64,000 nucleotides of DNA, taken from Escherichia coli. Lineage in GTDB: Bacteria; Pseudomonadota; Gammaproteobacteria; Enterobacterales; Enterobacteriaceae. The stretch's first letter is position 1. Each line of letters opens with the position of its first letter. The translations under genes were made by a program, and so were the position numbers. Below the pieces are notes generated by a model, which saw only the letters and a list, made by a program, of their open reading frames with translations, made no database searches and was not told where the DNA came from. The stretch is from NCBI RefSeq assembly GCF_003334335.1, contig NZ_QOWQ01000014.1; one strand, written 5' to 3'. Below are positions 2,473 to 64,000 of this stretch, one piece after another.

Positions 2473-3213
2473 ATGCTGCAAAATATTCGAATTGTGCTGG
2501 TGGAGACGTCACACACCGGCAATATGGGTTCTGTTGCCCGTGCCATGAAAACAATGGGATTAACCAATCTGTGGCTGGTTAATCCACTGGTGAAACCCGA
2601 CTCCCAGGCGATTGCCCTGGCAGCAGGGGCCAGCGATGTGATTGGTAATGCTCACATCGTCGATACGCTCGACGAAGCGTTAGCCGGTTGTAGCCTGGTG
2701 GTGGGCACCAGCGCACGTTCCCGCACGCTGCCATGGCCGATGCTCGACCCGCGCGAATGCGGCCTGAAAAGCGTCGCTGAAGCGGCAAATACCCCGGTGG
2801 CGCTGGTGTTTGGTCGCGAGCGCGTCGGCTTGACCAATGAAGAGTTGCAGAAATGCCATTATCATGTCGCGATTGCGGCTAACCCGGAATACAGCTCGCT
2901 GAACCTGGCGATGGCGGTTCAGGTTATTGCCTATGAAGTGCGCATGGCCTGGCTGGCAACTCAGGAAAACGGCGAGCAGGTCGAGCATGAAGAGACGCCG
3001 TATCCGCTGGTCGATGATCTGGAGCGTTTTTATGGTCATCTGGAACAAACGCTGCTGGCAACCGGTTTTATCCGTGAAAACCATCCGGGGCAGGTGATGA
3101 ATAAATTGCGCCGTCTGTTTACCCGTGCGCGCCCGGAAAGCCAGGAGTTGAATATCCTGCGCGGGATTCTGGCTTCTATTGAGCAGCAGAATAAAGGTAA
3201 CAAGGCCGAATAA
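2473..3213 (+). CDS. trmJ: tRNA (cytidine/uridine-2'-O)-methyltransferase TrmJ (SpoU family)
   Basis: ORF 246 aa, [30 protein letters not shown]...; sits directly upstream of the isc operon. Confidence 0.95.
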
Positions 3214-3395
<182 letters not shown>

Positions 3396-3440
3396 CAACA
3401 GGTACAAACGCCACGATAAAAAAATGGCACTGAAGGTTAA

Positions 3441-4173: not shown

Positions 4174-5388
4174 ATGAAATTACCGATTTATCTCGACTAC
4201 TCCGCAACCACGCCGGTGGACCCGCGTGTTGCCGAGAAAATGATGCAGTTTATGACGATGGACGGAACCTTTGGTAACCCGGCCTCCCGTTCTCACCGTT
4301 TCGGCTGGCAGGCTGAAGAAGCGGTAGATATCGCCCGTAATCAGATTGCCGATCTGGTCGGCGCTGATCCGCGTGAAATCGTCTTTACCTCTGGTGCAAC
4401 CGAATCTGACAACCTGGCGATCAAAGGTGCAGCCAACTTTTATCAGAAAAAAGGCAAGCACATCATCACCAGCAAAACCGAACACAAAGCGGTACTGGAT
4501 ACCTGCCGTCAGCTGGAGCGCGAAGGTTTTGAAGTCACCTACCTGGCACCGCAGCGTAACGGCATTATCGACCTGAAAGAACTTGAAGCAGCGATGCGTG
4601 ACGACACCATCCTCGTGTCCATCATGCACGTAAATAACGAAATCGGCGTGGTGCAGGATATCGCGGCTATCGGCGAAATGTGCCGTGCTCGTGGCATTAT
4701 CTATCACGTTGATGCAACCCAGAGCGTGGGTAAACTGCCTATCGACCTGAGCCAGTTGAAAGTTGACCTGATGTCTTTCTCCGGTCACAAAATCTATGGC
4801 CCGAAAGGTATCGGTGCGCTGTATGTACGTCGTAAACCGCGCGTACGCATCGAAGCGCAAATGCACGGCGGCGGTCACGAGCGCGGTATGCGTTCCGGCA
4901 CTCTGCCTGTTCACCAGATCGTCGGAATGGGCGAGGCCTATCGCATCGCAAAAGAAGAGATGGCGACCGAGATGGAACGTCTGCGCGGCCTGCGTAACCG
5001 TCTGTGGAACGGCATCAAAGATATCGAAGAAGTTTACCTGAACGGTGACCTGGAACACGGTGCGCCGAACATTCTCAACGTCAGCTTCAACTACGTTGAA
5101 GGTGAGTCGCTGATTATGGCGCTGAAAGACCTCGCAGTTTCTTCAGGTTCCGCCTGTACGTCAGCAAGCCTCGAACCGTCCTACGTGCTGCGCGCGCTGG
5201 GGCTGAACGACGAGCTGGCACATAGCTCTATCCGTTTCTCTTTAGGTCGTTTTACTACTGAAGAAGAGATCGACTACACCATCGAGTTAGTTCGTAAATC
5301 CATCGGTCGTCTGCGTGACCTTTCTCCGCTGTGGGAAATGTACAAGCAGGGCGTGGATCTGAACAGCATCGAATGGGCTCATCATTAA
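4174..5388 (+). CDS. iscS: Cysteine desulfurase IscS
   Basis: ORF 4150..5388. Start trimmed to ATG at 4174 ([19 protein letters not shown]...) for the 404-aa product. PLP-lysine context [12 protein letters not shown] and active-site SSGSACTS present. Confidence 0.96.
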
Positions 5389-10771: not shown

Positions 10772-11548
10772 ATGTCCGAAACAAAAAACGAACTTGAAGA
10801 CCTGCTGGAAAAAGCAGCAACTGAACCGGCGCACCGCCCGGCCTTTTTCCGTACTCTACTGGAATCCACCGTCTGGGTGCCTGGTACGGCGGCGCAGGGC
10901 GAGGCTGTGGTTGAAGATAGCGCGCTTGATTTACAGCACTGGGAAAAAGAAGACGGCACCAGCGTCATTCCTTTTTTCACCTCGTTAGAAGCACTTCAAC
11001 AGGCGGTTGAAGACGAACAGGCATTTGTCGTAATGCCCGTTCGCACGCTGTTTGAGATGACACTTGGCGAAACGCTCTTCCTTAATGCCAAAATGCCAAC
11101 CGGTAAAGAATTTATGCCGCGTGAAATCAGTTTGTTGATTGGTGAAGAGGGAAATCCGCTGAGCAGCCAGGAAATCCTGGAAGGCGGTGAATCGCTGATA
11201 TTATCGGAAGTCGCAGAGCCGCCAGCACAAATGATTGATTCACTCACCACCTTATTTAAAACCATTAAGCCGGTGAAGCGTGCTTTTATTTGTTCAATTA
11301 AAGAGAACGAAGAGGCACAGCCTAATTTACTTATTGGCATTGAAGCCGATGGTGATATCGAAGAAATTATTCAGGCGACGGGAAGTGTAGCGACCGATAC
11401 ATTACCTGGCGATGAACCAATCGATATTTGTCAGGTGAAAAAAGGGGAAAAAGGAATTAGCCACTTTATTACCGAACATATTGCGCCATTCTATGAACGT
11501 CGCTGGGGTGGTTTTTTGCGTGACTTTAAACAGAATCGGATAATCTAA
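10772..11548 (+). CDS. sseB: SseB (enhanced serine sensitivity protein B)
   Basis: Track ORF starts at GTG 10763. ATG at 10772 gives MSETKNELEDLLEKAATEPAHRPAFFRTL... (258 aa). Confidence 0.9.
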   Translation: MSETKNELEDLLEKAATEPAHRPAFFRTLLESTVWVPGTAAQGEAVVEDSALDLQHWEKEDGTSVIPFFTSLEALQQAVEDEQAFVVMPVRTLFEMTLGETLFLNAKMPTGKEFMPREISLLIGEEGNPLSSQEILEGGESLILSEVAEPPAQMIDSLTTLFKTIKPVKRAFICSIKENEEAQPNLLIGIEADGDIEEIIQATGSVATDTLPGDEPIDICQVKKGEKGISHFITEHIAPFYERRWGGFLRDFKQNRII

Positions 11549-11860
11549 AATATGCCGCCCAAAGGGCGGCATTCGGGCTTACTTGCTGCTCTGAAGGTTG
11601 TTAACCACCAGTAAATTGTCGCCGGAGAGACTCCGGTTATTATTTACCTCGGTTAACAGCGCACCAGAAACAATAAGTACGATACAAAAGCACCGTATCT
11701 TCATTGTGCGGTCCATGCGAAGACCGCATCACGACAGCACCACTGGCGATATTGCCGCGATAGCAAGCGCTGTGAAACACCTGCATTTACGGCCACGGAA
11801 CATCCTTTCCTAAAGCCAGCGCCCGTTTGCGAGACGGCGGAAAGGGCCGCAGTGGATAAT
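11549..11860 (-). ncRNA. ryfA: RyfA-like ~300-nt transcript (small-protein mRNA / sRNA) in the sseB-sseA intergenic region; ends at the hairpin 11554..11570
   Basis: Minus-strand unit inferred from an intrinsic terminator oriented for the minus strand (stem gccgccc/gggcggc at 11554..11570, U-tract given by the complement of 11545..11553), a minus-strand TATTAT -10-like hexamer at 11866..11871 (no convincing -35 found) and the enclosed small ORF. Position matches my recollection of where ryfA lies relative to sseB. Exact ends are uncertain. Confidence 0.45.
11579..11716 (-). CDS. Candidate small membrane protein, 45 codons (41 from the second ATG at 11704): MDRTMKIRCFCIVLIVSGALLTEVNNNRSLSGDNLLVVNNLQSSK; TimP-like type I toxin candidate
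   Basis: Hand translation of the minus strand. Hydrophobic N-terminal segment IRCFCIVLIVSGALL followed by a polar Asn-rich tail. Stop codon lies 8 nt upstream of the terminator hairpin. No strong Shine-Dalgarno sequence seen. Below the ORF track's length cutoff. Confidence 0.4.
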   Translation of the reverse strand: MDRTMKIRCFCIVLIVSGALLTEVNNNRSLSGDNLLVVNNLQSSK

Positions 11861-12027
11861 ACACTAACAGAACAATAATAACTCTCTTTTGCTTGACAAA
11901 AAGAGAGTTACTGGCGAGTATTGTCTCCGCTGAGACGCGCTTGCATTACTACGGTAATACAACCTGCTGGAAAGGCCGCGAACCGGACCAGCAACAAAAA
12001 ACCGCCTGATTTTGGCGGTTTTTTGTT
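11834..12027 (+). ncRNA. sRNA-like module copy 1 (~194 bp): internal inverted repeat around TTGACA, conserved 22-nt box, intrinsic terminator
   Basis: Inverted repeat actctctttt/aaaagagagt flanks gcTTGACA (11893..11898). Conserved box cctgctggaaaggccgcgaacc at 11963..11984. Hairpin aaaaaaccgcc-tgatttt-ggcggtttttt near 11995..12027 with T-tracts on both strands, so strand assignment is tentative. Longest internal ORF is 12 codons. Confidence 0.4.
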
Positions 12028-12155
12028 TTTTAAAGGAAAGTGAATTTACATGTTTAAGTAATATCTTTTACCGGTTAGAATTTTTAATTTTGAGCAGGAT
12101 TTGTTTATATTTGTCTGAATTCGGACTAATAAGCCAGGTTATTTTATTACCGAAC

Positions 12156-12349
12156 ACGGCGGAAAGGGCCGGTGTCGATAATACGCTAAATAAACAATAA
12201 TTACTCTCTTTTGCTTGACAAAAAGAGAGTTACTGGTGAGTATTGTTTTGCTGTGAAGCACCTGCGTTGCTCATGTAACACAAGTCAACCTGCTGGAAAG
12301 GCCGCGAACCAGACTAGCAATAAAAAACCGCCAAATTCGGCGGTTTTTT
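12156..12349 (+). ncRNA. sRNA-like module copy 2 (~194 bp), diverged paralogue of copy 1
   Basis: Same architecture 322 bp downstream: identical start acggcggaaagggcc, same inverted repeat and TTGACA, identical 22-nt box at 12289..12310, terminator aaaaaaccgcc-aaattc-ggcggtttttt at 12322..12349. Central part diverged (roughly 75-80% identity by eye). Longest ORF 14 codons. The terminator also closes sseA on the minus strand. Confidence 0.35.
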
Positions 12350-12365
12350 ATTGCCTGTAAAATAC

Positions 12366-49823: not shown

Positions 49824-50885
49824 ATGCTCGAAATGTTGATGCAATGGTATCGCCGCCGTTTTAGCGACCCGGAAGCGATTGCCTTGCTGGTTATTTTAGT
49901 TGCCGGATTTGGCATTATCTTTTTCTTTAGTGGCCTGCTTGCTCCGTTGCTGGTGGCTATTGTGCTGGCCTATTTGCTGGAATGGCCAACCGTGCGTCTG
50001 CAATCTATTGGCTGCTCCCGCCGCTGGGCGACGTCGATTGTATTGGTGGTTTTCGTCGGTATATTGCTACTGATGGCGTTCGTGGTACTGCCTATCGCCT
50101 GGCAACAGGGCATCTACTTAATCCGCGATATGCCGGGGATGCTCAATAAGCTTTCTGACTTTGCCGCCACGTTGCCGCGCCGCTATCCGGCGTTAATGGA
50201 CGCGGGCATTATTGATGCAATGGCCGAAAATATGCGCAGTCGGATGCTGACCATGGGCGATTCGGTGGTGAAAATTTCCCTCGCCTCGCTGGTCGGTTTG
50301 CTGACCATAGCCGTCTATCTGGTGCTGGTGCCATTGATGGTCTTCTTCCTGCTGAAAGACAAAGAGCAGATGCTGAACGCCGTTCGCCGGGTGCTGCCGC
50401 GTAACCGTGGGCTGGCAGGACAGGTGTGGAAGGAGATGAATCAACAAATCACCAACTATATCCGCGGCAAAGTGCTGGAGATGATCGTGGTGGGGATCGC
50501 CACCTGGCTGGGGTTCTTGCTCTTCGGGCTGAACTATTCGCTGCTGCTGGCAGTGCTGGTCGGCTTCTCGGTTCTTATTCCGTACATTGGCGCATTTGTG
50601 GTGACCATTCCGGTGGTTGGCGTGGCGCTATTCCAGTTTGGCGCAGGTACTGAATTCTGGAGCTGCTTCGCGGTGTATCTGATTATTCAGGCGCTGGACG
50701 GCAACCTGTTAGTGCCGGTGTTGTTCTCCGAAGCGGTTAACCTGCATCCGCTGGTGATTATTTTATCGGTGGTGATCTTCGGTGGTTTGTGGGGATTCTG
50801 GGGCGTATTCTTCGCCATTCCGTTGGCGACGCTGATCAAAGCCGTGATTCATGCCTGGCCCGATGGGCAAATCGCGCAAGAATAA
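49824..50885 (+). CDS. perM: AI-2E family membrane transporter PerM (YfgO)
   Basis: ORF 353 aa, MLEMLMQWYRRRFSDPEAIALLVILVAGFGIIFFFSGLLAPLL...; polytopic. Confidence 0.9.
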   Translation: MLEMLMQWYRRRFSDPEAIALLVILVAGFGIIFFFSGLLAPLLVAIVLAYLLEWPTVRLQSIGCSRRWATSIVLVVFVGILLLMAFVVLPIAWQQGIYLIRDMPGMLNKLSDFAATLPRRYPALMDAGIIDAMAENMRSRMLTMGDSVVKISLASLVGLLTIAVYLVLVPLMVFFLLKDKEQMLNAVRRVLPRNRGLAGQVWKEMNQQITNYIRGKVLEMIVVGIATWLGFLLFGLNYSLLLAVLVGFSVLIPYIGAFVVTIPVVGVALFQFGAGTEFWSCFAVYLIIQALDGNLLVPVLFSEAVNLHPLVIILSVVIFGGLWGFWGVFFAIPLATLIKAVIHAWPDGQIAQE

Positions 50886-50889
50886 TCTT

Positions 50890-50923
50890 CAGCCCGACGA
50901 ACTGTTTCGCCGGGCTGATTTTT
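50890..50923 (+). terminator. Intrinsic terminator after perM
   Basis: cagcccgacg-aactgtttcg-ccgggctg followed by attttt; lies between convergent perM and focB. Confidence 0.5.
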
Positions 50924-51771
50924 CAGGGTTCCTGACGTAAATAAATAGCCCGATAACACATACTCACCAGCACCGCACCGCCGATAATATTACCCAGCAT
51001 CACCGGGAGCAGATTGGCGGTAATAAAATGGCTGACCGTCAGTGCCGGAAAATTGTCTGCGCTACTGTGCGCCAGCTGCCAGAAGGGGGGAGGGGCGAAA
51101 TGGCGAATGGCAATGGCGAACGGAATCACAAACAAATTGGCGATACAGTGCTCAAAGCCACTGGCGACAAACAGGGTGATGGGCAAAATCATGGCGACGA
51201 TTTTGTCGCATAACGAACGCCCGCAATAACTCATCCACAGCGCCAGGCAAACCATCAGATTGCACATAATGCCGAGGCTGACAGATTCAGTAAATGTATG
51301 ATGCATTTTGCCCTCGGCGCAGTGTAAAACCGCGACTCCCCACATCGCGTTTTCACTCATCACCAGCCCGGAAAACCAGATTAACAAACTGAAACAGGCA
51401 ATACCTGCCAGATTACCGCAGGCCACCAGAAGTGCGTTAATCAGCCAAGTTCGCCAACTAATAACGCCCCGACTTTTTGCCATCACCGTCATTACCGACG
51501 AGGTGAACAGGCTGGTGCCGCAAACCGCCAGCAAAATAAAGCCGAGTGTAAAGCAAAGGCCGCCCACCAGATGGGTTAATGCCTGTGAAGACGGGGCATC
51601 GGCGATAACGGAAAGGTAAAAAGTAAATCCGATCGCCATAAACACGCCAGCGGACATCGCCATTAAAAAGACCGACACTTTACTGCGGGCAATTTTATGG
51701 GCGGCAATCCGTTCAGCGATTGCCGCTTTTCTGGCGCTCAACTGCAAGTCGAAAGAGAGTTTGTTTCTCAT
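50923..51771 (-). CDS. focB: Formate channel FocB (FNT family)
   Basis: ORF 282 aa, MRNKLSFDLQLSARKAAIAERIAAHKIARSKVSVFLMAMSAGVFMAIGF... Confidence 0.92.
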   Translation of the reverse strand: MRNKLSFDLQLSARKAAIAERIAAHKIARSKVSVFLMAMSAGVFMAIGFTFYLSVIADAPSSQALTHLVGGLCFTLGFILLAVCGTSLFTSSVMTVMAKSRGVISWRTWLINALLVACGNLAGIACFSLLIWFSGLVMSENAMWGVAVLHCAEGKMHHTFTESVSLGIMCNLMVCLALWMSYCGRSLCDKIVAMILPITLFVASGFEHCIANLFVIPFAIAIRHFAPPPFWQLAHSSADNFPALTVSHFITANLLPVMLGNIIGGAVLVSMCYRAIYLRQEP

Positions 51772-51792
51772 GCATACTCCTGCAAAAGCAGA

Positions 51793-53808
51793 TTACAACA
51801 CCTCGCGAACCGAGATCCCCAGCCGCTGCATTCGTGACAGCAGCGTGGTGCGCTTCATCCCTAATCGCGTCGCTGCGCCACGGGGCCCGGCAACAATGCC
51901 ATTGGTTTCTCGCAATACCTGAACAATGCGCTGACGTTCTTCTTCGTCATTCTCTGGCGTCGTCGGGTGCAGTAACTGCGCCATTGAACTGCGAAGCGCT
52001 GAATCTTCATTTAGCGTCGGCAGTAAACGGCTTTGTCGGACATTTAGATGTAAATTCAGACTGTTACCACGAGTCAACAGTACCGCCCGCTCAATCACGT
52101 TTTCCAGCTCGCGCACGTTGCCCGGCCAATCCCACGACATCAACTGGCGTAGTGCCTCGGTCGGGATGGCGTCAATTGCGCGATTCATATGGCGCGCCAT
52201 TTTTTGCGTGAAATGTTTTGCTAAAAGAGGGATATCTTCCGGACGGTCGCGTAGCGGCGGCAATTCCAGTGGGAAGACATTCAGGCGATAAAAGAGATCG
52301 CTGCGAAACTGGCGATCTTCAACCATTTGCCACAAATCACGGTTGGTGGCGGCAATGACTCTGACATTCACCGGGATCGTTCTACTCCCGCCGAGACGCT
52401 CAATCTCCCGCTCCTGCAATACGCGCAGCAGTTTAGGCTGAAGTTCTAACGGCAGATCGCCAATTTCATCGAGAAACAACGTGCCGCCATCGGCAATTTC
52501 AAAACGACCACGATGGGTATTAATCGCACCAGTAAACGCCCCTTTGTCATGACCGAATAACTCACTTTCCAGAAGACTGGCGGGGATGGCAGCGCAGTTG
52601 ATTTTGACCAGCGGCTTGTCGCGTCGCGGGCTAAGTTGATGGATCGCTCTGGCGATCACCTCTTTGCCAGTTCCGGTTTCACCACAAATCAACACCGTAC
52701 TGTCGCTCTTCGCCACAATATCTACCTGCTGGAGCAGGTCTTCCATTGCCTGGCTTTGATAGATAATGTCACCGATGCCCAGATTCGAAAGGAGCTGCTC
52801 GCTAAGCTGGTGGTTTTCTTGCTGCAAACTTTCCTGCAAATCGGTCATGCTACGCCAGGCATCGGCATTGCCAACGGCAATAGCGATGCGATCGGCTATG
52901 TGTTGTAGTAGCTGGCAGTTTTCCTCACTAAAGAGAGTGGAAGAGGTATGCGCCAGCAACAATGCACCCGGTGTATGGTTGCCAAAGGTAAGCGGTATAA
53001 GGAGCGCAGATTCGCAGCCGTTAGATGCAAGTAAGAGTAATAACGGGTCGCGTTGCCAGAGAAACAGATCATCTGCACGGTGCGTCAAGGTCGGTTGTCG
53101 GGTTTGTAGCGTTTGTGTCAGCAATACACTTTCGCCAGGCATACAGCGTGGCAGACACGCACAATGTGAGGCAGAAAGATCGCTGCACCACAGGCTGAAC
53201 TTCTCGTTCTTTCGATGATCGCCCAGTACCATACTGACTGAAGCCAGACCGAAAAAATGATGGATCTCACGAGCGACGTCAGCGATCAGATCGTCGAGAT
53301 CAAGATGTGACAGCACTGCATTAGTAATATCAACCAGTACCCGATGATGATCGCGATCTTTCTCCAGCAAACGCAGCGCCACCTGCTGTTCTTCATCATT
53401 GAGCCATGATTGCAGAACCGGGGTGATTATCCGCGCCAGCCAGTTAAACAGTGTGCAATCCTGGGAAGTAAAACGACTGCCGTGGGTGCGAATAAAGCGT
53501 AGCTCCGCCATTCCACTACTGCCGAGAAGGACGGCGTGACGCGAATAATCGACCATCTCGCCCTGATACTCTGTTGTTGCCGTCACATCGCTGCCATCAT
53601 CATGGTAGCGGTAATAGAAGTTGCTTTTGAGAACATGCAGTTCAATAAGTTGTACCGGGCTGAACGGCGGCGGCAGCGGGATGAAGGCGCGTAATAAAGA
53701 CGCCTTGCCGTGTTTCTGTGCTAACCGCTCCGCGAGCATTCCGTTTACCGCTTCAATTGTTATTCCTTGTGGCGGGGCAAACATCGCCTCGTCTGACATA
53801 GCCATCAA
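51793..53808 (-). CDS. hyfR: Sigma-54-dependent transcriptional activator HyfR (FhlA paralogue)
   Basis: ORF 671 aa. AAA+ sigma-54 activator signature GETGTGKE and GAFTGA motif; C-terminal HTH. Confidence 0.93.
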
Positions 53809-53834
53809 CAGTCCTTATTAATGAGAAATCCTTC

Positions 53835-54248
53835 TCACGCAATTTTTCTGGCCATCAGATAGATGGCCGGTTCCTGCACAATTTCATCCAACAGATGAAT
53901 GAATTGAATGCTACGCGCCTGCCACACAGACGTCGCGTCATCCGCCAGTGGCGCGAATGCCCGGGTCAACAGGGCGGTGTGGCTGGCGTCAATAACAATC
54001 TCACCAAAAGTCATCACCCCCAGCATCTTACGTCGGGCTTGCTCCTCTTCGACCAGTGCAAGCCAATCTTCGTATTCCGTCAGTGGGCAGCGGAAGGCGA
54101 CATTCAGACAATCAATCACGCCAACGTGATGGCCGATAGCTAGCGAGTAATACATTACCTGAGAGCTGTGTTCCGGCATCTCGTCGCTACTGGCGACAAA
54201 CTTTTTTCGCAGCGTCCAGAAAACAATTTCCCCGCACTCTTCAGTCAT
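53835..54248 (-). CDS. hyfJ: HyfJ (HycH-like hydrogenase maturation/assembly factor)
   Basis: ORF 53835..54311. Start trimmed to [17 protein letters not shown]... for 137 aa. Confidence 0.82.
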
Positions 54249-54999
54249 GTAACCCCCGGAGTACGCGAAAGAGTTGCTGAACGATACTATTGAGACGTGG
54301 ATCGTCGGCATCGCGCAACCAGGTGTTAACCCGATTTCCTGTAGGATCGTCGCTTAAATGGCGCAGGAGCCGATCGCAAATTTCTCGCCCCTGACGATAG
54401 CCCGCCAGCCGCCGCGCTTCTCGCTCAATGGCGATACGCTGTGATGGCGGGATCTGCGGCCACAACGGTTGCATAGTCACCCCGGTGGGATCGCGATAAT
54501 CCACAGCGTGAATCTTCTGTTGCAGCAAACCGAGCGCCACGGCGAAACCGTGAATGGTGGCGGCCGGTGTTGGCGGGCAGCCGGGGATCCAAACATCAAT
54601 GGGGACAATGGTGTCGCTACCGCCCCAGACGCTGTAGAGATCGTGGAAAATACCGCCGCCGACACCGCACGCGCCGTAGGAAACACAAATTTTATGATCG
54701 GGGGCAGACTCATACGCCCGAAGTGCAGGCATACGCATCGCCCGGGTGACTGCGCCAGTAAATAACAAAATATCGGCGTGACGCGGTGATGAAACAACCT
54801 TAATGCCAAAACGTTCTGCGTCGAATACTGGTGTAATGGCAGCAAAAATTTCGATTTCACAGGCGTTGCAGCCGCCGCAATCGACGCGATAAACGTAAGC
54901 CGAGCGACGGATATCCTGTAGCAAATGCCGCTTCATCTTTTGCGTTTGCTCGTCCAGCGTGATGGGCTGGCTGACATGTTGTGTAAGCACTGGACTCAT
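54241..54999 (-). CDS. hyfI: Hydrogenase-4 small subunit HyfI (NuoB-like)
   Basis: ORF 252 aa; cysteine motifs CGGCNAC and GCPP. Confidence 0.93.
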
Positions 55000-55541
55000 A
55001 GCTGCTCCTTAGCCACCAGCAGTACATCTGTATCGTCGTTGATCAGCGTCGCGCGTTGTTTGCATTCCGGGCAGACGCTCGCTTGCGCCCACAACATTTC
55101 GCGGTTTTGTGGCGCATTTTGTTGCTGTGCTAACAATTCAGCAGCCAGTGCGATGGTTTTTTGCGGGGCAAACGGGCGTTCGCAACGGCTGCAACGTTGT
55201 AGATGGAACGTCGCGCGGGTATAGAGATCGGCTTTATTGGTGACGGTCAGTTCAAAGTTATTGGTAAGCTGGATGGCTCTGGTCGGGCACACTTCTTCAC
55301 AACGTCCGCAGTAAATACAACGCCCCAGATAGAGCTGCCAGGTGCGCGAATTTTGCTGGTCGTCGGTCTGGATAGTCAGCGCATTTGCCGGACAAGCACA
55401 GGCGCAGGCACCGCAGGCAATACATTGGCTGGGCATCAGGTCCGGTTTTCCGCGAAAGCCAGGGCTGACCTCCAGTGGCGCGAAGGGATATTTCACCGTC
55501 GCGGTTCCGGCGCGCATAATAGTTTTCAGTAATTTCAGCAT
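54996..55541 (-). CDS. hyfH: Hydrogenase-4 ferredoxin-type subunit HyfH (2x[4Fe-4S])
   Basis: ORF 181 aa; [12 protein letters not shown] and [12 protein letters not shown] motifs. Confidence 0.93.
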
Positions 55542-55550
55542 CTTCTGTCC

Positions 55551-57218
55551 TTACTTCAGCGGCGAACGGTTACGATCAATGCCGTAGCGTTCGATCTCTT
55601 TATACGGCACGGTTTTTGACTGGCGCTTGCGCACATCTACCAGCGTCACACGGTCGGTACAGGAGTAGCAGGGATCAAGGCTACCGATAATCAGCGGTGC
55701 GTCAGAAACGGTATTGCCGCGCAGCATGTAACGCAACACCGGCCAGTTGGCGTAGGTGGCGGCACGGCAGCGCCAGCGGAACAATTTTTGGTTATCACCG
55801 AGCATGCTCCAGTGCACGTCTTCACCGCGTGGCGCTTCAACAAAGCCCAGCGCGAATGCGTGAGGTTTATAGCTAAAGCCTTCGGTCAGCAGTGGGGTAT
55901 CCGGCATGTTGTCGAGGGCAAATTCCAGCATTGCCAGCGAATCAAACGTCTCTTTGACACGGACCATCACGCGGGAGAAAACATCGCCGCCGGTAAAGGT
56001 AAACAGTGTTTTTGGAATATTGCCGTAGTCGGCGTAGGGGTGATCAAAGCGCAAATCACGGGCGATTTGTCGGTCGAGAATGCCAATGCCCTGAGTGCGT
56101 TGTTCCATATTCGGCGTAGCAAGCAGCATCTCTACCAGCTCCGACACGTCGGCGCGCATCTCGCGCACCAGTTTCAGCGTTTGCAGACGTTGCTCTTTGA
56201 GAATATCGCGGCGAACACCACCAATCAGATTCAGACCGTAGGTTTTACGCGACCCGATCAGCAATTCCGCCATCGTCATCGACTTTTCCCGCACGCGGAA
56301 AAATTGCATAAAGCCGGTATCAAAACCAACGAAATGGCAGGAGAGGCCAAGGTTAAGCAAATGACTGTGTAGCCGTTCGACTTCCAGCAGAATCGAGCGA
56401 ATAGTATGTGCTCGTTGCGGCACCTCAATCCCCAGTGCATTTTCAACCGAATTGGTATAGGCCACACTGTGGGCAAAACCGCAAATCCCACACACGCGGT
56501 CCGATAAGAAGGTCACTTCGTTGTAGCCCATCCGCGTTTCTGCCAGTTTCTCCATGCCGCGATGGACATAAAACAGGCGGTAATCAGCATCGACAATTTG
56601 CTCGCCATCCACAAACAAGCGGAAGTGACCCGGTTCATCGGAGGTGATATGCAGCGGGCCGACAGGGATCACCCGCGCATCGCTGTTGCCCTCATTGATA
56701 AACGGATACGTTTCGGAATCAGTCGTCGGTTCAGGGCGCAGTCGATAATCCATCGCATCTTTGCGCAGCGGATGCATATCTTCCGGCCAGTCATCGGGCA
56801 ACACCAGGCGACGCTGATCCGGCAGGCCAACCGGAATCAGCCCGTACATATCGCGAATTTCTCGCTCGCCCCAGACCGCGGCAGGGACGCGCGGTGTGAC
56901 TGACGGAAACTCCCGACTGTCGGCATCGACCAGCGCCTTCACCACAATCCAGCATTTTTCGGCCCCTTCCATTGAAAGGGCATAATAAACCGCGTAATGA
57001 CCGTTAAGTGTCCGCTCGTCGTTGCCAAACAGGACCGGAAGCCAGCCATCATGTTGATAATAAAGATACTGTACAACGTCAGGCAGCAGATTGATTTTCA
57101 CCGTAATGGTGACCTGTTCAGGCGTTTGTCGCTCTTCATCCAGCACCGCGCCGGGGAACTGCGTTTTCAGGGCGGCGAGAATCGCTTCGCCACGATTTGA
57201 CGATGAATTAACGTTCAC
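55551..57218 (-). CDS. hyfG: Hydrogenase-4 [NiFe] large subunit HyfG
   Basis: ORF 55551..57263. Start trimmed to the GTG at 57216-57218 for 555 aa. N-terminal RVCGICGF and C-terminal DPCYSC (encoded at 55659..55676) nickel-binding motifs. Confidence 0.92.
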
Positions 57219-58788
57219 TGTGTTTCTCCGAAACAGATGCGGTGCCTGAAGGCAAAAAATCATGCCAGGTGCTACGTTGTGCAGGCAGATCGTGCGTCCC
57301 TGAGAGGACTATAGTGGAAGCGCCCGCCAGGATCCTGATGACAGGTTGTGGAATATGCGTTCCCATCGCCAGCATCATGACCAGCAGAATCACCATTGGC
57401 GAGGTGGTCAACCAGCCGAGATCACCCCGGTTAACGGCCTGCGGCGGTTTCGCCATTAACACCCGCGCAGCCATCCGTACCAGGCCCGCCAGCACCAGCG
57501 TTAACAGCAATAACAGCAGGACGATAATCAGCAGGTGATTACGTGCCAGTCCGGCGGTAATGGTCATAAATTCGCTAAGAAAAATGTTGAAGGGCGGCAT
57601 CCCTGCCAGCGCCAGCGCACCGCCGCCAAACAGCACGGCGGTAAATGGCATGATTTTGAGCATCCCACAGACGACGTTGAGATCGCGCGTGCCGTACTTG
57701 AGCAGTACATTGCCGGAACCGCAGAACAGCAGCGTTTTTGCCAGACTGTGGTTTAAGATGTGCAGCAGCGCGGCAAAAATTCCCAGCGGCCCGCCAATGC
57801 CTAGCTCCACCGCGACCAGCCCCATGTTCTCCACGCTGGAGTACGCCAGCAGACGCTTAATGTCCCGCTGTACCAGAATGAAAAATGCCGCCACGGCAAC
57901 CGACAACATGCCGAAGATGAGCAACAACCGGTTGGGGAAATCGCTGCCGATGGCTTGGCAAATAATGATGTAATAGCGAATCAGCACCAACAGCGCGCAG
58001 TTCAGCAATACGGCGGAGAGCAGGGCGCTGACCGGACTCGGCGCTTCACTGTGAGCATCCGGCAGCCAGGCGTGCATGGGAAATAGCCCGGTTTTGGTAC
58101 CAAAGCCAATTAGCAAAAACACAAAGGCCAACAGCATTAATGTTGGGTCAAGCAAGGACGATTGCTTAAGAACCTCGCTCCAGAATATCGCCATTTCTGC
58201 CTGCGGCATAACGCTGGCGGCGTTGGCGTATACCAGCACGGTACCGAACAGACCAAAAGCGACACCAACAGTACAAATAATGATGTACTTCCATGCAGCT
58301 TCCAGCGATGAACGCTGACCGTAAATGCCTACCAGAAACGCCGAGCTTAAGGTGGTGGCTTCGATCGCCGCCCACATCACAATCAGGTTATTGCTGGTAA
58401 CAACCAGCAGCATGGTGAACAAAAACAGATGGAAGAAACCGTAGTAATCGCACAGCGTAACGGGTGAAAGCTCGCCGTGTGCCACTTCATGACGCATGTA
58501 GCCAATCGAGTAAATACCGGTGAGAAAGCCAATCACACCAAGAATGGCGAGGAACAAACCGCCCAGACCATCAATATGAAGCCACAGTCCCGCAGCGAAT
58601 ATTTCTCCTGCATCAGCGGCAGTTTGGACCACCCAGAGTGCCAGAATCAGCAGCAGTGTGATCCCTAAGCTATGTAATACGGTCACCGTGCGAGTCGCAG
58701 AAAGTCTCCGTTTCCGGCAGGCAAAACAGAGCAGCGAAAAAAGCAGCGGCGTGAGCAGGAGTAAAGCGAACATCACAGAATAACTCAT
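57208..58788 (-). CDS. hyfF: Hydrogenase-4 membrane subunit HyfF (NuoL/M/N antiporter-like)
   Basis: ORF 526 aa, polytopic. Confidence 0.92.
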
Positions 58789-58792
58789 CTCA

Positions 58793-59443
58793 TTATCCCT
58801 TCAGCGCGGTCAAGTTGTTCACGTCCAGCGTGCCGTGGGTACGCCATATTTTTCTTGCCAGTAACACCATCACAATGACGGCGAAGATGGCGTCGGTAGC
58901 GATACCTATTTCCACCAGTTCCGGTGCTCGCCAGGCAAGAAGCGCCAGCACCAGATGGGAGCCGTTTTCCATCAGGCAGTAACCAAAAATTTGCCGCAGG
59001 ATATTGCGCTGGCTGACAATGCACAGCAGGCCAAGCAGAAAATGACCTAACGCTACCGCCAGCGCCGGTTTCAGCCCGGTAGCCATCGGTAGCTTCACGG
59101 GCTGAACGACAAATGCGCAAAGCAGGACAATTAACGCCGCGAGCAGTGCCATCATTGCCGGACCGAATAACGCTTTTTCCGGGATGTTCTGGGGAATATT
59201 TCGTGCAGCGTAAGTCATGATTAACGGTACCAGCAGCACTTTGGTGATAAAGGCGCTGGCGGACCAGATCAGCAGTTGCTCTGCGGCGAACAGGCACGAG
59301 AGAGTGGCGAAAATAGACACCAGCACCAGTGACTGGCAGGCGTAAAATCCGCATGACAGGCGATAGCTTTTGACGCTAATCACAAACAGCGATGTCAGCA
59401 TCATCAGTCCCGCCAGATTATTTACGATCATAGAACCGGTCAT
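58793..59443 (-). CDS. hyfE: Hydrogenase-4 membrane subunit HyfE
   Basis: ORF 216 aa, polytopic. Confidence 0.9.
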
Positions 59444-59454
59444 TCATCATCTCC

Positions 59455-60894
59455 TTACTGCAACCAGGTCGCGGCGATTACGCTGGAAATCAGCGACATC
59501 ACAATCAGTACAATCAACACCAGGCGCATTGATCCTGGCAGCGGTGCGGCATCGGCGACGGCCTCGCTCGGTTTACCAGGCACAACGCGACCAAACCAGC
59601 GAATAAACCAGGCGAAACTGGCGACCGATTCAATCATCAGAAGAATCATGGCGGGCAGCAGGATCCAGTACTCCACTGACAACGCAAAACCGGCAGCAAA
59701 CAGCGGGAATTTACTGAAGAAGCCGTTGAACGGCGGCACGCCGGTAATCGCCAGCGCTGCCACGCAGAAACCCACGCCTGGCAACGGCAGGGTGTGCAAT
59801 ACGCCACGCAGACGCGGCAACAAGCGCGTGCCGCAGCTGTAACTCAGCGCACCTGCTACAAGGAAAAACAGGCTTTTAGCGAACGCGTGGTTGACGATGT
59901 AGGCGATGCTGCCCTCCAGCGCCAGCCGCGAGCCGAAGATGGAGAGCGACAAGCCGAAGAACATCCAGCCAAGTTGAGTGATGGTCGACCAGGCTAGCAA
60001 CCGCTTCATATCCTGCTGTGGCAAATACATCAGAAAGCCATAAAGAATGGTGACCAGTGCCATGACCATGCCAACGCCGCCAATCACATGCGGGATATTG
60101 CCGCCGTCGATAATAGCGCGGGCAAAAATGTAAACGCCCACTTTCACCATCGATGCGGCGTGGAGATAGGCGCTGATCGGTGTTGGCGCTTCCATTGCGT
60201 CCGATAGCCACGCTTGCATCGGTAGCTGGGCCGATTTCCCCCACGCGGCAAACAGGATGCCGCCATAAACCAGATAACGTGCGTCGCCGTGTAACTCGCT
60301 CATCGCGCTAAGCGCAAACGTTCCGGTCTGCAAAAACAGCGTGGCGGCGGCAAGATACAACCCCAACGAGCCGATATGAGTGATAAGTAACGCTTTTAGT
60401 GCTGAACGCTGCGCTTTATCGCTCTGGTAATAACTGATCAACGCCCAGGAGCAGCCGCCTGTAATTTCAAAAAACAACAACTGACCGAGCAGCGTCGAGG
60501 AGAGTACCAGTCCCGCCATCGCGCCGATAAACACCAGTAAAAATGCGTAATAACGATTCGTGCCGTTATGCGGGTGTTCGCGATTTTTATCCGTCAGATA
60601 ACCCGTGGAGTAGATCGTGACCAGCAAACCGAGAAACACCACCACAAACAGAATCAGCGTACTCACGCGATCAATGACCAGGCCAAACAACGCCACATCC
60701 CCCACGTTGACCAACGTCAACGTGACGGCAACTTTATCGGCCTGATAAAACGCGGAGATCAGTGACAACATGCACAGCGTGGTCAGCGCGGCGAACAAAA
60801 CCCCCCATTCGGCGGCCCGACGTTGTGGCGAAAACGAAACGACCAGTGCGCCGATAAAAGGCAGCAATAACGTCGTCAGAGCAAGATTTTCCAT
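59455..60894 (-). CDS. hyfD: Hydrogenase-4 membrane subunit HyfD (antiporter-like)
   Basis: ORF 479 aa, polytopic. Confidence 0.92.
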   Translation of the reverse strand: MENLALTTLLLPFIGALVVSFSPQRRAAEWGVLFAALTTLCMLSLISAFYQADKVAVTLTLVNVGDVALFGLVIDRVSTLILFVVVFLGLLVTIYSTGYLTDKNREHPHNGTNRYYAFLLVFIGAMAGLVLSSTLLGQLLFFEITGGCSWALISYYQSDKAQRSALKALLITHIGSLGLYLAAATLFLQTGTFALSAMSELHGDARYLVYGGILFAAWGKSAQLPMQAWLSDAMEAPTPISAYLHAASMVKVGVYIFARAIIDGGNIPHVIGGVGMVMALVTILYGFLMYLPQQDMKRLLAWSTITQLGWMFFGLSLSIFGSRLALEGSIAYIVNHAFAKSLFFLVAGALSYSCGTRLLPRLRGVLHTLPLPGVGFCVAALAITGVPPFNGFFSKFPLFAAGFALSVEYWILLPAMILLMIESVASFAWFIRWFGRVVPGKPSEAVADAAPLPGSMRLVLIVLIVMSLISSVIAATWLQ

Positions 60895-60910
60895 ATTCCG
60901 TCAGTGCTCC

Positions 60911-61858
60911 TTACAGACCGGTTAACCAGAAGACCCATGCAAGCGCAGCAAGGCTGAAGCCAAGCCAGGTCACATGGTGAATGAGTAAAAAACGCCCGCG
61001 TGCCAGCGTGTTTTCTGCGATTGAGGCCAGTACAAAAATCAGCAAAACCTTGAGCAGCGTAACGACAAGTGAAGTCAGCAGGCAGGCGAGAGAAAGTTCT
61101 TGCGCGCGCCCAAAGGGCAGAAACAGGGCCACAAACAGTGATGCCATCACGACCTGTTTCAGCCCCAGCCCCCATTTCGCTAGCGCCAGCCCGGCACCGG
61201 AATATTCGGTCAGCGGGCCTTCCTGTAATTCCTGTTCTGCTTCAGCAACATCAAAGGGAATTTTTCCCATCTCAATGAAGCAGGCAAAACCACAGGCCAG
61301 TAACGCCAGTACGGTGGTTAGCGGCGAGTTCCAGCCCATCGCCAGCGTATTGCTGATCATCTCGATATGCGTGGAACCTGCTATCAGCGCCAATACCAGC
61401 AGTGAGAGAATAAGCATTGGTTCGACCAGAATGCCGAGCGTCAACTCGCGACTGGCACCGACTCCCGCAAACGGACTTCCGGTATCCAGCCCGGAAAGAG
61501 CAAAGAAAAAACGAAACAGGGCAAGAAGATAGATAAGGGTGATCAGATCGCCGCCGCCCGCAAAAGGGGAAACGGTAATAAACAGTGGTAAGGCCATCGC
61601 CAGCACCAGCATGCTGCTGATTAATACCCACGGCATCAGGCGGAACATCAGACCTGAAGATGTCGGCGCAACTTCCTGGCGTTTAAACAGTTTGTGGATA
61701 TCGCGATAATCCTGCCAGATCCCCGGCCCGCGGCGGGAGTGCATACGCGCGCGTATCTGCCGGGAAATACCCGTAAAAAGTGGGGTTAGCATCAGCAGAA
61801 TCACGGCCTGTGCTAACGCAAAAATGACCAGATATCCGTCGCAAAGAGTTTGTCTCAT
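60911..61858 (-). CDS. hyfC: Hydrogenase-4 membrane subunit HyfC (NuoH-like)
   Basis: ORF 60911..61879. Start trimmed to MRQTLCDGYLVIFALAQ... for 315 aa. Confidence 0.9.
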   Translation of the reverse strand: MRQTLCDGYLVIFALAQAVILLMLTPLFTGISRQIRARMHSRRGPGIWQDYRDIHKLFKRQEVAPTSSGLMFRLMPWVLISSMLVLAMALPLFITVSPFAGGGDLITLIYLLALFRFFFALSGLDTGSPFAGVGASRELTLGILVEPMLILSLLVLALIAGSTHIEMISNTLAMGWNSPLTTVLALLACGFACFIEMGKIPFDVAEAEQELQEGPLTEYSGAGLALAKWGLGLKQVVMASLFVALFLPFGRAQELSLACLLTSLVVTLLKVLLIFVLASIAENTLARGRFLLIHHVTWLGFSLAALAWVFWLTGL

Positions 61859-61868
61859 GGTGATTTCC

Positions 61869-63887
61869 TTAGACGGCAATAGCGATTAGCAGCACAACCA
61901 GTGCGGCGACCACATACAGGCAATAGAGACGAAAGTCGCCGCTTTGCAGATGCTGTATTTCTTTGGCCAGCCGTTGGGTGGCGCTCACGATGGGGCGGAT
62001 CACCCGCTCATCCCAGAAGGGTTCTGTGCTCTGAGCCCTGGCGGTGACGTGCGCAAGACCTTTATTTAGCCTCAGCGTAGGGTCGAGCTGTTGTCGTAGA
62101 CGAAATAGCGCAGAAAAGACCACACGCAGCGGCTGCATCACGCCATTGCCTGACGGGGCCATCGCATTTTCCCAGCCGTAGCCGCATGCCCAGGCATCTC
62201 CTGTGCGACGAAACGCTGCGCGGCGCGAACGACACCACAGCCAGTAAAGGCCAGGCAGCAAAGGCATCGCCAGTAGTAACAGCAACAGTAATGAGGGGGT
62301 GACCTGTGTATGAAACGTGCCGGGTACAAGTGCTATTCCGCTGGCGACAGTGGTGGGAGGGGTATTGGTAAACGCATGGGCAATATGCATTATCTTCGGT
62401 GCCAGCCAACTGGCACTAAGCGCAATTAATACGCAGAGTGCCGCGAGCAGTAGCATGGCGACGATCATCGTATTTGGCACTTCCTGTGCCTCTTCAGCGT
62501 GTGTACTGCGCGGCGCACCACAGAAAGTAATACCGTACATTTTTACGAAGCACATTACTGCCAGCCCACCAGTGACTGCCAGCATTACCATAGCAATAGG
62601 ACCCGCAAGTTGTAGCGCTACGGCTTCCACACGACTTAGTGAGAACAGCGACTGCCAGGTGTACCATTCGCTGATAAAACCATTCAGCGGAGGAATGGCT
62701 GATATCGCGAGGCAACCAATCAGGCATGCTGCGGCTGTCCACGGCATCCGTTTCGCTAGTGCCCCCATTTTTTCCATGTCGTGGGTATGCAAACGCGAAA
62801 TAATCGCTCCCGCGCCGAGAAATAGCAGCCCTTTGAACAGCGCATGGTTGAGCAGATGAAACAGTGCGCCGAGCAGTCCAACCACGGTGAGCAGCGGGTC
62901 GTGCAGTGACAGACCGACCATCGCCACACCGACTGCCAGCAAAATAATGCCGACGTTTTCGACGGTACTCCAGGCCAGCAGCCGTTTGATATCCTGTTCC
63001 GCCAGCGCATATAGCACGCCCAGGAGCGCGGAGATTGCGCCGATCGCCATCACCAGAATGCCCCACCACAGAGGCAAACCCGTTTGCGCCAGCAGATCCA
63101 TCGCTACTTTCAGGATGCCGAAAATACCTATTTTGACCATTACGCCAGACATCAACGCCGAAGCGTGCGATGGTGCGGCAGGGTGAGCGCGCGGCAACCA
63201 GCTGTGCAACGGCATCATCCCGGCTTTCGCGCCAAAACCGAAAAAGGCCAGCAGGAACACCGCCGACGCCAGCCCCGGAGAAAGTGAAAGCGTGCGGAAA
63301 CTGGCAAAATCGAGGCTGCCGCTTTCGCGCCCCATCAGCAAGAAGGCGATCATTATCAGCACCGATCCGGCGTGGGCGATAAAAAAGTAGAGCATGCCAG
63401 CGTTGATCGACGTTTTATCCTGCCTGGCAATGACCAGAAACCAGGAAGACAGCGACATCATTTCAAACAGCACGATGAACCAAAAAGCGTTGTCCATCAC
63501 CAGCAGGGCAACCATCGATGCGATGAAAATATTCATAAAGAAGCCCATCGCCGCCGCGCCTTTGCCCTCGTATTCGCGCATATAAGTCAATGAATAGAGA
63601 GAACAAACCACCACCAGCAAGGAGATAACCAGCACCATAAATGCCGAGAGGCTATCCATTCGCAGGGTTAAATCGGCAAATTCAAAAGGGGTGGCAAAAC
63701 GGGCGACTAAAGTTACACCAGCATGTAATTGCGTAATTCCGCTGATGATGCCAATCACGCCGCCCACCAGCGATGTGATGCCGGAAAGCTTAATAGCCAG
63801 TCTGTCCAGACCGAGTAAAAACAGCGAAGCCAGACTAGCAAACAGATAGAGAATCAGCGACCAGGTTAATAATTGCAGGGCATCCAT
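61869..63887 (-). CDS. hyfB: Hydrogenase-4 membrane subunit HyfB (NuoL-like)
   Basis: ORF 61869..63926. Start trimmed to MDALQLLTWSLILYLFASL... for 672 aa. Confidence 0.9.
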   Translation of the reverse strand: MDALQLLTWSLILYLFASLASLFLLGLDRLAIKLSGITSLVGGVIGIISGITQLHAGVTLVARFATPFEFADLTLRMDSLSAFMVLVISLLVVVCSLYSLTYMREYEGKGAAAMGFFMNIFIASMVALLVMDNAFWFIVLFEMMSLSSWFLVIARQDKTSINAGMLYFFIAHAGSVLIMIAFLLMGRESGSLDFASFRTLSLSPGLASAVFLLAFFGFGAKAGMMPLHSWLPRAHPAAPSHASALMSGVMVKIGIFGILKVAMDLLAQTGLPLWWGILVMAIGAISALLGVLYALAEQDIKRLLAWSTVENVGIILLAVGVAMVGLSLHDPLLTVVGLLGALFHLLNHALFKGLLFLGAGAIISRLHTHDMEKMGALAKRMPWTAAACLIGCLAISAIPPLNGFISEWYTWQSLFSLSRVEAVALQLAGPIAMVMLAVTGGLAVMCFVKMYGITFCGAPRSTHAEEAQEVPNTMIVAMLLLAALCVLIALSASWLAPKIMHIAHAFTNTPPTTVASGIALVPGTFHTQVTPSLLLLLLLAMPLLPGLYWLWCRSRRAAFRRTGDAWACGYGWENAMAPSGNGVMQPLRVVFSALFRLRQQLDPTLRLNKGLAHVTARAQSTEPFWDERVIRPIVSATQRLAKEIQHLQSGDFRLYCLYVVAALVVLLIAIAV

Positions 63888-63951
63888 TAGCGTTGCTCCT
63901 GAGTGAGGGAAAGGGGATCCTCCCATAAGCGCTAACTTAAGGGTTGTGGTA

Positions 63952-64000
63952 TTACGCCTGATATGATTTAACGTGCCGATGAATTACTCTCACGATAACT
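63952..64000 (-). CDS. hyfA: Probable 3' end of hyfA (hydrogenase-4 ferredoxin-type subunit), last ~15 codons; gene runs off the right window edge
   Basis: Minus-strand frame reads ...VIVRVIHRHVKSYQA then stop at 63952..63954, directly upstream of hyfB. Assignment by position only. Confidence 0.4.
   Translation of the reverse strand, partial: VIVRVIHRHVKSYQA

Follow-up and report, generated by a model that had tools for sequence, protein, structure and literature searches.

The hyf gene cluster

The window analyzed here is a stretch of 64,000 nt from the Escherichia coli contig NZ_QOWQ01000014.1 (GCF_003334335.1). Between positions 50923 and 63887 it carries eleven co-oriented genes on the minus strand, which read hyfB-C-D-E-F-G-H-I-J, hyfR and focB from position 63887 downward and represent the hydrogenase-4 or formate hydrogenlyase-2 locus of E. 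coli. The initial annotation had named the locus hyf with hyfR and focB, and this assignment was borne out by a DNA identity of about 100% to annotated E. coli hyf loci and by nearly identical proteins in K-12. The genes are also tightly packed, as had been described, with gaps from -11 to 29 nt (10, 16, 11, 4, -11, 9, -4, -8, 29 and 21 nt from hyfB to focB). Descriptions of the hyf operon date back to 1997. With the K-12 operon (hyfABCDEFGHIJ-hyfR-focB, b2481-b2492) the locus shares all eleven genes, their order, their spacing and their start codons, and yfgO flanks the focB side in both cases.

Over 13,002 nt of hyf DNA there are 5 differences from K-12. Alignment to the reference Hyf proteins, the check by which an intact gene set could have been refuted, revealed neither frameshifts nor internal stops; all 11 proteins have the K-12 length and 3 of 4285 residues are substituted (P66T and A512T in HyfB, P231S in HyfD). 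An apparent M1V difference in HyfG was rejected as a translation artefact; the start codon of hyfG in K-12 is also GTG. A search with Rfam found no RNA families in the hyf region; its matches in the rest of the window are RNAs known from K-12. As a hyf cluster, this nearly exact counterpart of the K-12 copy offers nothing new.

Judged by sequence, the locus encodes the components of a group-4 membrane-bound [NiFe]-hydrogenase related to complex I, and HyfB, HyfD, HyfE, HyfF, HyfH and FocB exceed the NCBIfam equivalog cut-offs. Three membrane subunits are antiporter-like and mutual paralogues with matches to the NuoL/M/N and Mrp antiporter families: HyfB (672 aa, 61869-63887; 977 bits at a cut-off of 667), HyfD (479 aa, 59455-60894; 805 bits at a cut-off of 430, with NuoL/MrpA-like matches) and HyfF (526 aa, 57208-58788; identical to K-12, 1177 bits at a cut-off of 951). 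The substitution P231S in HyfD is private to this copy. HyfE had been counted among the antiporter-like subunits in place of HyfB, which was incorrect. This small protein (216 aa, 58793-59443, identical to K-12) is NuoK-like with a match to PF00420 at residues 127-216; its own family is the sole NCBIfam match, above the equivalog cut-off, and BLAST of HyfE against HyfB, HyfD, HyfF and HycC gave no match. Finney et al. 2019 (PMC7384014) likewise describe HyfD and HyfF as additional channels of the HycC/HyfB type and HyfE as NuoK-related. The membrane part is completed by the NuoH-like subunit HyfC (315 aa, 60911-61858), which is identical to K-12 and matches the NuoH families.

The remaining hydrogenase subunits, all identical to K-12, comprise the [NiFe] large subunit HyfG, a NuoC-NuoD-like fusion of 555 aa with a GTG start (55551-57218), the NuoI-like subunit HyfH (181 aa, 54996-55541) with two CxxCxxCxxxC motifs for 2x[4Fe-4S], the small subunit HyfI (252 aa, 54241-54999) with a match to the NuoB family, and the HycH-like assembly protein HyfJ (137 aa, 53835-54248). 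HyfG contains the two reported nickel-binding motifs, RVCGICGF (residue 241) of the N-terminal RxCGxC type and DPCYSC (residue 515) of the C-terminal DPCxxC type. HyfH scored 362 bits with the equivalog "hydrogenase 4 subunit H" (cut-off 270), and HyfJ 208 bits with the HycH subfamily model (cut-off 145). At the 3' end of the cluster lie the genes of the sigma-54-dependent activator HyfR (670 aa, 51793-53805) and of the formate channel FocB of the FNT family (282 aa, 50923-51771), both identical to their K-12 counterparts. HyfR has an AAA+ domain and the sigma-54 contact motif GAFTGA at residue 422. It matches the NifA, NorR and FhlA models strongly, but with 642 bits it stays below the FhlA equivalog cut-off of 830 and is therefore not FhlA itself. 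FocB reached 649 bits with its own NCBIfam model (cut-off 499) and 290 bits with TIGR00790 (fnt; cut-off 232).

Comparison with hyc and with hydrogenase-4 of Pectobacterium

The reciprocal comparison with the hyc cluster that had been proposed returned the expected pairs: HyfG/HycE (70% identity, including the C-terminal extension), HyfI/HycG (62%), HyfC/HycD (52%), HyfR/FhlA (51% across residues 104-664), HyfA/HycB (50%), HyfJ/HycH (48%), HyfH/HycF (45%) and HyfB/HycC (37%). A misidentified hyc cluster could be rejected, since the Hyc proteins are 37-70% identical to those encoded here and the K-12 Hyf proteins more than 99.9%. Both systems have the same [NiFe] motifs and the C-terminal extension of the large subunit. 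In contrast to hyc, hyf contains three additional membrane genes, the antiporter-like hyfD and hyfF and the NuoK-like hyfE, and has its own activator and formate channel at its 3' end, whereas a gene for a HycI-type protease and hycA are missing. The subunit set of FHL-2 from Pectobacterium atrosepticum (PMC7384014) is the same as that of E. coli hyf. Hydrogenase-4 of that organism is demonstrably active, and its cluster also contains fdhF, hyp genes and the gene of a dedicated protease, HyfK (PMC7384014). None of these is part of the E. coli locus, which is reported to be silent.

An IS186 element at the hyfA-hyfB junction

The gene set had been called complete, intact and contiguous up to position 64000. 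The eleven reading frames are indeed intact, but the cluster as a whole is neither complete nor contiguous: hyfA is absent from the window, and the last 113 bases (63888-64000) contain no hyf gene. They consist of a 3'-terminal remnant of hyfA of 37 nt (63888-63924, minus strand) and 76 nt of an insertion sequence (63925-64000, plus strand), the latter at the place where an overlapping hyfA is expected in hydrogenase-4 loci. The remnant carries the Shine-Dalgarno sequence of hyfB, AGGAG, and matches K-12 exactly up to position 63924, beyond which the sequences diverge. Between the breakpoint at 63924/63925 and the ATG of hyfB lie 37 nt; in K-12 the stop codon of hyfA overlaps this ATG. Homology to K-12 ends at the left end of an element of the IS186/IS421 type (IS4 family), which is cut by the window edge. 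The part inside the window comprises a terminal inverted repeat of 22-23 bp and, from its ATG at 63979, 22 nt of the transposase ORF. The transposase is transcribed away from hyfB. The final codons of hyfA are interrupted by IS186, and at the junction an in-frame ATG arises 13 codons upstream of hyfB.

For the sequence past position 64000 we used the closest genome, EC11, which is collinear with the window outside the IS region at 99.97% identity and shows zero mismatches to the 76 nt of the element. In EC11, hyfB and a hyfA gene with an altered C-terminus lie on opposite sides of the 1.3-kb element. The element is identical to IS186A of K-12 at 1337 of 1337 positions and is bordered by perfect inverted repeats of 22 bp; its transposase carries an IS421-family annotation and is recognized by the NCBIfam model of IS4 transposases. 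The target of the insertion is GGGG-AGGAT-CCCC (GGGG-N5-CCCC) in the last codons of hyfA. One copy of the target duplication, GGGGATCCTCCC, lies at positions 63913-63924 of the window, and the second, outside the window, is found on the far side of the element in EC11. The last 8 residues of HyfA in EC11 are replaced by 3, which gives 200 instead of 205 aa. The gene order hyfB-IS-hyfA was found in all 4 genomes inspected. Judged by the closest genomes, we infer that the window edge is followed by the rest of a full-length IS186, the duplicated target GGGATCCTCC(CC), hyfA and finally the sigma-54 promoter. Compared with K-12, hyfA and this promoter would lie about 1.3 kb farther from hyfB, and the last 8 residues of HyfA would be missing.

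Distribution of the insertion in E. coli

The junction was surveyed in the 4299 complete E. coli genomes that bear the hyf junction region. It is intact in 4203 of them and occupied by IS186 in the other 96 (about 2%), and the insertion allele occurs in many lineages and diverse hosts. Both orientations of the element are present (44 and 52 junctions) at two positions 1 nt apart. These four junction classes point to at least four independent insertions. The junction sequences were located at 4394 places in the 4299 genomes: 95 of the 96 IS-bearing genomes keep both junction halves nearby, which indicates simple insertion, and one genome has one half only. A frameshift in hyfB is already present in isolate w264.

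Probable consequences for the expression of hyfB-hyfJ

A search for hyfA and a sigma-54 promoter (GG-N10-GC) beyond the right edge had been proposed. In EC11 a candidate sigma-54 (-24/-12) promoter, TGGCATCCTTTATGCA, is located 28 nt upstream of hyfA (L001 19896-19911) and thus outside the window; it lies about 2 kb upstream of hyfB and across the IS, although matches with an equal score also arise by chance in coding sequence. Within the window the same pattern gave five matches of 9/11 on the hyf strand, all of them inside coding sequence. These matches reach the same score as the candidate upstream of hyfA, and the pattern alone has no discriminating power.

Before a transcript from the hyfA promoter reaches hyfB, it would have to extend through the IS for 1.3 kb in antisense direction, untranslated and with a terminator-like hairpin. 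Untranslated stretches of this length are typical targets of Rho-dependent polarity. The hairpin and its T-run lie inside the IS on the hyf-sense strand with a calculated energy of -16.5 kcal/mol, and the hairpin is only marginally more stable than shuffled sequences (z = -1.9), 12 of 200 of which reach the same or a greater stability. In addition, the translational coupling of hyfA and hyfB would be lost through the IS. With the untranslated antisense RNA, its hairpin and the lost coupling taken together, expression of hyfB-hyfJ is probably far below that of strains with an intact junction, which themselves reportedly hardly express the operon. Assuming Rho-dependent termination, transcriptional polarity on hyfB-J is likely. 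hyf is reportedly almost silent in K-12, and the phenotypic change caused by the insertion may for this reason be small. hyfR-focB is said to be transcribed separately and should be unaffected. A precedent is an IS186 insertion that was interpreted as parting downstream genes from their own promoter (PMC6925257). We assign a probability of about 0.75 to the reading as a whole, namely that an intact hyfB-J-hyfR-focB cluster is cut off from hyfA and the promoter by IS186 and that expression of hyfB-J is probably reduced.

The insertion could also be functionally neutral, if the sigma-54 promoter of hyfA reads through IS186, hyfB is translated from its own Shine-Dalgarno sequence and the operon works as in K-12. 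The untouched ribosome-binding site of hyfB and the untouched downstream ORFs are consistent with this possibility, as are the weakness of the candidate terminator and the persistence of the insertion allele in so many lineages and hosts. However, such persistence would be equally expected if hyf were dispensable, and neither the invitation to Rho-dependent polarity that a long untranslated RNA generally offers nor the hairpin with its T-run on the hyf-sense strand fits to unimpaired read-through; we consider neutrality unlikely.

A gain of expression seems very unlikely to us. In this case an outward or hybrid promoter at the IS end would drive hyfB-J independently of sigma-54, FhlA and HyfR and activate a silent operon. 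The end of the element is merely 37 nt away from the hyfB ATG, the junction supplies the additional in-frame ATG, and repeated hits at the same site might be a sign of selection. On the other hand, a scan of both strands around the IS (L001 17700-19500) gave no sigma-70-like promoter, although such a coarse consensus search may overlook outward or hybrid promoters. The similar numbers of both orientations agree better with a target-site preference than with selection for a promoter at one end, and the palindromic target motif alone accounts for the recurrence (PMC5009759). Moreover, a complex produced without the normal coupling to HyfA would lack stoichiometric expression.

That the IS186 copy marks the breakpoint of an IS-mediated inversion or deletion, with hyfA and its promoter elsewhere or lost, is extremely improbable: the window does end inside the element, IS186 copies do mediate recombination (PMC5009759) and one IS-bearing genome retains a single junction half, but nearly all genomes with a split junction retain both halves, the order hyfB-IS-hyfA is preserved wherever it was inspected and the remaining window is collinear with EC11.

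The hyfA site as an IS186 target and its implications

Separation of hyfB-J from hyfA and the promoter by simple insertion, the reading that we prefer, joins a known system with a known behavior of an insertion sequence. The hot spots of IS186, the lon promoter in E. coli B and fimA and menC in mutation-accumulation lines, have a GC-rich quasi-palindromic GGGG...CCCC target and are struck repeatedly and independently at one site in both orientations (PMC5009759), and the same applies to the site in hyfA. The published motif is GGGG(N6/N7)CCCC, and N5 cores are rare but have been observed (PMC5009759). The hyfA site differs from the usual targets by its core of 5 instead of 6-7 nt and from the hot spots by its location at a gene junction within an operon and by its occurrence in natural isolates. 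A full-text search for hyf and IS186 yielded a single, unrelated paper, and within the literature searched no paper links the pair in such a way.

One could speculate that the GGGG-N5-CCCC site in hyfA serves as a recurrent natural IS186 "switch" under selection rather than as a neutral hot spot. Insertions would time and again detach the membrane and catalytic genes of hyf from the sigma-54 promoter and silence a costly cryptic operon or, with the element in co-directional orientation, could rewire it to read-through from the transposase. We regard this as quite improbable; if true, hydrogenase-4 would be heritably switched on or off in different E. coli lineages, both commensal and pathogenic.

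The correction of the gene set is a useful result in itself, as a cluster that looks intact from its ORFs is, judged by its closest relatives, physically severed by IS186 from its first gene and promoter. To the known target preference of IS186 it adds an example from a natural population with a rare 5-nt core. Wherever the capacity for hydrogenase-4 is inferred from the presence of genes, or strains are chosen for studies of hydrogenase-4 physiology, the hyfA-hyfB junction is worth checking.

Identity and integrity of the hyf genes

The 14 kb of the window between positions 50000 and 64000 showed about 100% identity to complete E. coli chromosomes, and some match to this stretch was present in 5426/5426 genomes of the collection. 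At the corresponding locus of the best-matching genome, strain EC11 (L001; window coordinate = L001 coordinate + 45999), the genes are annotated in the order focB, hyfR, hyfJ, hyfI, hyfH, hyfG, hyfF, hyfE, hyfD, hyfC and hyfB; all lie on the minus strand, with yfgO as the flanking gene. The name hyf given in the initial annotation is correct. The remaining window is collinear with EC11 (99.97% identity); its genes, which extend from the isc operon to bepA, are ordinary core genes.

All eleven hyf/focB frames are open at the annotated coordinates, no internal stops were found in them and each has the length of its K-12 MG1655 counterpart, so that alignment to the reference Hyf proteins revealed neither frameshifts nor premature stops. 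Relative to K-12, 3 of 4285 residues are exchanged (HyfB P66T, HyfB A512T and HyfD P231S), with 5 differences in 13,002 nt of DNA. The intergenic distances from hyfB to focB are 10, 16, 11, 4, -11, 9, -4, -8, 29 and 21 nt, and gaps of -11 to 29 nt agree with the tight packing and short overlaps described initially. Both [NiFe] large-subunit motifs reported there are located in HyfG (RVCGICGF at residue 241, DPCYSC at residue 515), and HyfR contains GAFTGA at residue 422.

Four differences in hyf, at window positions 55533, 59575, 60204 and 62354, are private with respect to both EC11 and K-12; a further one is located at 49920. All four are transitions (G>A or C>T), and two of them are nonsynonymous (HyfD P231S and HyfB A512T). 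Outside hyf the window differs from EC11 by 15 mismatches in 50 kb; the density within hyf is similar, so that relaxed selection is not clearly indicated. Imperfect direct repeats at 3213-3398 and 11834-12350 (94.7% over 94 nt; 82.7% over about 195 nt) coincide with naRNA4 (3275-3346) and with the ryfA/IS128 sRNA pair (11547-11850 and 11982-12190) adjoining timP; they are ordinary K-12 features.

Comparison with hyc and the antiporter-like subunits

A reciprocal comparison with the K-12 hyc proteins and FhlA, using HyfA from K-12, identified the locus as hyf and ruled out hyc. The identities were 70% for HyfG and HycE, 62% for HyfI and HycG, 52% for HyfC and HycD, 51% for HyfR and FhlA, 50% for HyfA and HycB, 48% for HyfJ and HycH, 45% for HyfH and HycF, and 37% for HyfB and HycC. 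No counterpart of HycI or HycA was found in the hyf locus in this comparison, whereas hyfD, hyfE and hyfF are present in hyf and missing from hyc.

These three products had been described as the antiporter-like membrane subunits, which holds for HyfD and HyfF. HyfB, HyfD and HyfF match the NuoL/M/N and Mrp antiporter families (E-values of about 1e-39 to 1e-77) and are paralogous to one another and to HycC. The only families matched by HyfE, in contrast, are its own in NCBIfam and, with residues 127-216, Pfam PF00420 (NuoK/chain 4L); the protein comparison revealed no similarity to HyfB, HyfD or HyfF. The hyf-specific genes had thus been merged with the antiporter-like subunits, and HyfB had been missed. 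The same division of subunits was made by Finney et al. 2019 (PMC7384014).

An IS186 element upstream of hyfB

The right edge of the window is identical to K-12 through the hyfB ATG (63885-63887) and 37 nt upstream, and the alignment diverges completely at 63924/63925. Beyond 63924 the window reads ATAAGCGCTAACTTAAGGGTTG..., which represents the terminal inverted repeat of an element of the IS4 family. The EC11 copy of this element (L001 17926-19262) comprises 1337 bp with 22-bp perfect inverted repeats, encodes a transposase of 370 aa on the strand opposite to hyf and is identical to K-12 IS186A at 1337/1337 positions. The stop codon of hyfA and the ATG of hyfB overlap in K-12; in the window the IS186 end replaces the hyfA sequence at 63925, so the initial description of a complete, contiguous cluster was not borne out.

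The insertion target, located within the final codons of hyfA, reads GGGG-AGGAT-CCCC in K-12. In EC11 the IS lies between two copies of GGGGATCCTCCC, a duplication of 10-12 bp depending on the assignment of the terminal C/G to the element. By its sequence the site appears to fit the published IS186 target GGGG(N6/N7)CCCC, for which a 5-nt core was found once in 59 sites (PMC5009759). The K-12 IS186A itself sits in a near-identical sequence, GGGGATCACTCCCC, with the flanks GGGGATCACTCCC and GGGATCACTCCCC (L008, the K-12 IS186A locus, 172-191 and 1529-1548) as compared with GGGGATCCTCCCC at hyfA. IS186 may therefore prefer a GATC-containing core besides the G/C flanks.

The predicted HyfA of EC11 ends with ...GGEDPHKR after 200 aa, the unaltered form with ...GGEDPLSLTQEQR after 205 aa. 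The terminal ...CTTATG of IS186 and the hyfA remnant create a new ATG at window 63924-63926 (minus strand), in frame with hyfB and 13 codons upstream of its normal start (MGGSPFPHSGATL-MDAL...; ORF 61869-63926). Because of this ATG, hyfB is listed with 685 aa, and not 672, when ORFs are called mechanically.

Predicted effect on expression

Hyf proteins form a complex-I-like, membrane-bound, formate-linked H2-evolving enzyme (FHL-2). This is most likely also the function of the products encoded here, with HyfR as sigma-54 activator and FocB as formate channel. In EC11 the hyfA ATG is preceded, at a distance of 28 nt, by a sigma-54 -24/-12 element, TGGCATCCTTTATGCA; the equivalent position, about 65900 on the window scale, is beyond the right edge of the window, and some 2 kb separate the element from hyfB. 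Transcription starting at the hyfA promoter would have to cross the IS in the direction opposite to its transposase gene. The hyf-sense strand of the IS contains a hairpin with a T-run (GCCGGAAAGGGAGCTCCGGC-TTTTTTATT, L001 18710-18691), which at -16.5 kcal/mol and z = -1.9 is only a weak terminator candidate. An untranslated RNA of 1.3 kb invites Rho-dependent termination. Translational coupling between hyfA and hyfB would be lost; the AGGAG of hyfB is retained at the junction, and a scan detected no sigma-70-like promoter near the IS. From the IS crossing, the weak hairpin, Rho, the lost coupling and the missing sigma-70 promoter we infer that expression of hyfB-J is probably reduced, with a probability of roughly 60%. 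A comparable reading, in which IS186 separates genes from their promoter, has been published (PMC6925257).

Within hyfJ, some 100 nt ahead of the start of hyfR, there is a sigma-54-like match, TGGCAGGCGCGTAGCA (9/11; window 53909-53924, minus strand), at the place expected for a separate hyfR-focB promoter. Five matches in coding sequence, this one included, reach the same score, so that it may be due to chance. Skibinski et al. are said to have found in 2002 that hyfR-focB is transcribed independently. As hyf is reportedly almost silent in K-12, the phenotypic effect of IS186 may be small.

Recurrence of the insertion in E. coli

With a 151-nt probe spanning the uninterrupted hyfA-hyfB junction of K-12, the region was detected in 4299/5426 genomes, and the junction was unbroken in 4203. 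The junction type of the window (hyfB flank and left IS end) occurred in 44 genomes and the inverted one, detected with a synthetic probe, in 52. The sum of 96 equals the difference between 4299 and 4203, and thus IS186 at this site accounts for all broken junctions in the collection. The probe matched 4394 places in the 4299 genomes, so that both junction halves are kept in 95/96 of those with IS186, a result that a simple insertion would give. Four aligned genomes represent four junction classes, two orientations at two positions 1 nt apart; judged by these junction sequences, at least four IS186 insertions at the hyfA site are independent. The nearly equal orientations at a quasi-palindromic target argue for target preference and not for selection for one IS end.

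The isolate w264 (NZ_CP095088.1; L005 1-1738) carries IS186 at the hyfA site in the same orientation, shifted by 1 nt. In the annotation of this isolate hyfB is a pseudogene with a frameshift, which could reflect either a sequencing error or gene decay following the severing of the operon. About 1127 of the 5426 complete E. coli genomes did not match the 151-nt probe, and only 4291 contained 80% or more of the 14-kb hyf region; accordingly, the hyf locus appears to be missing or truncated in about one fifth of the species.

No IS186-hyf connection of this sort was found in the literature searched. Both the hyf locus described here and its host organism are known, and the interruption is not a new kind of system. 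The interruption of hyf by IS186 and its recurrence in natural isolates are a minor, useful observation.
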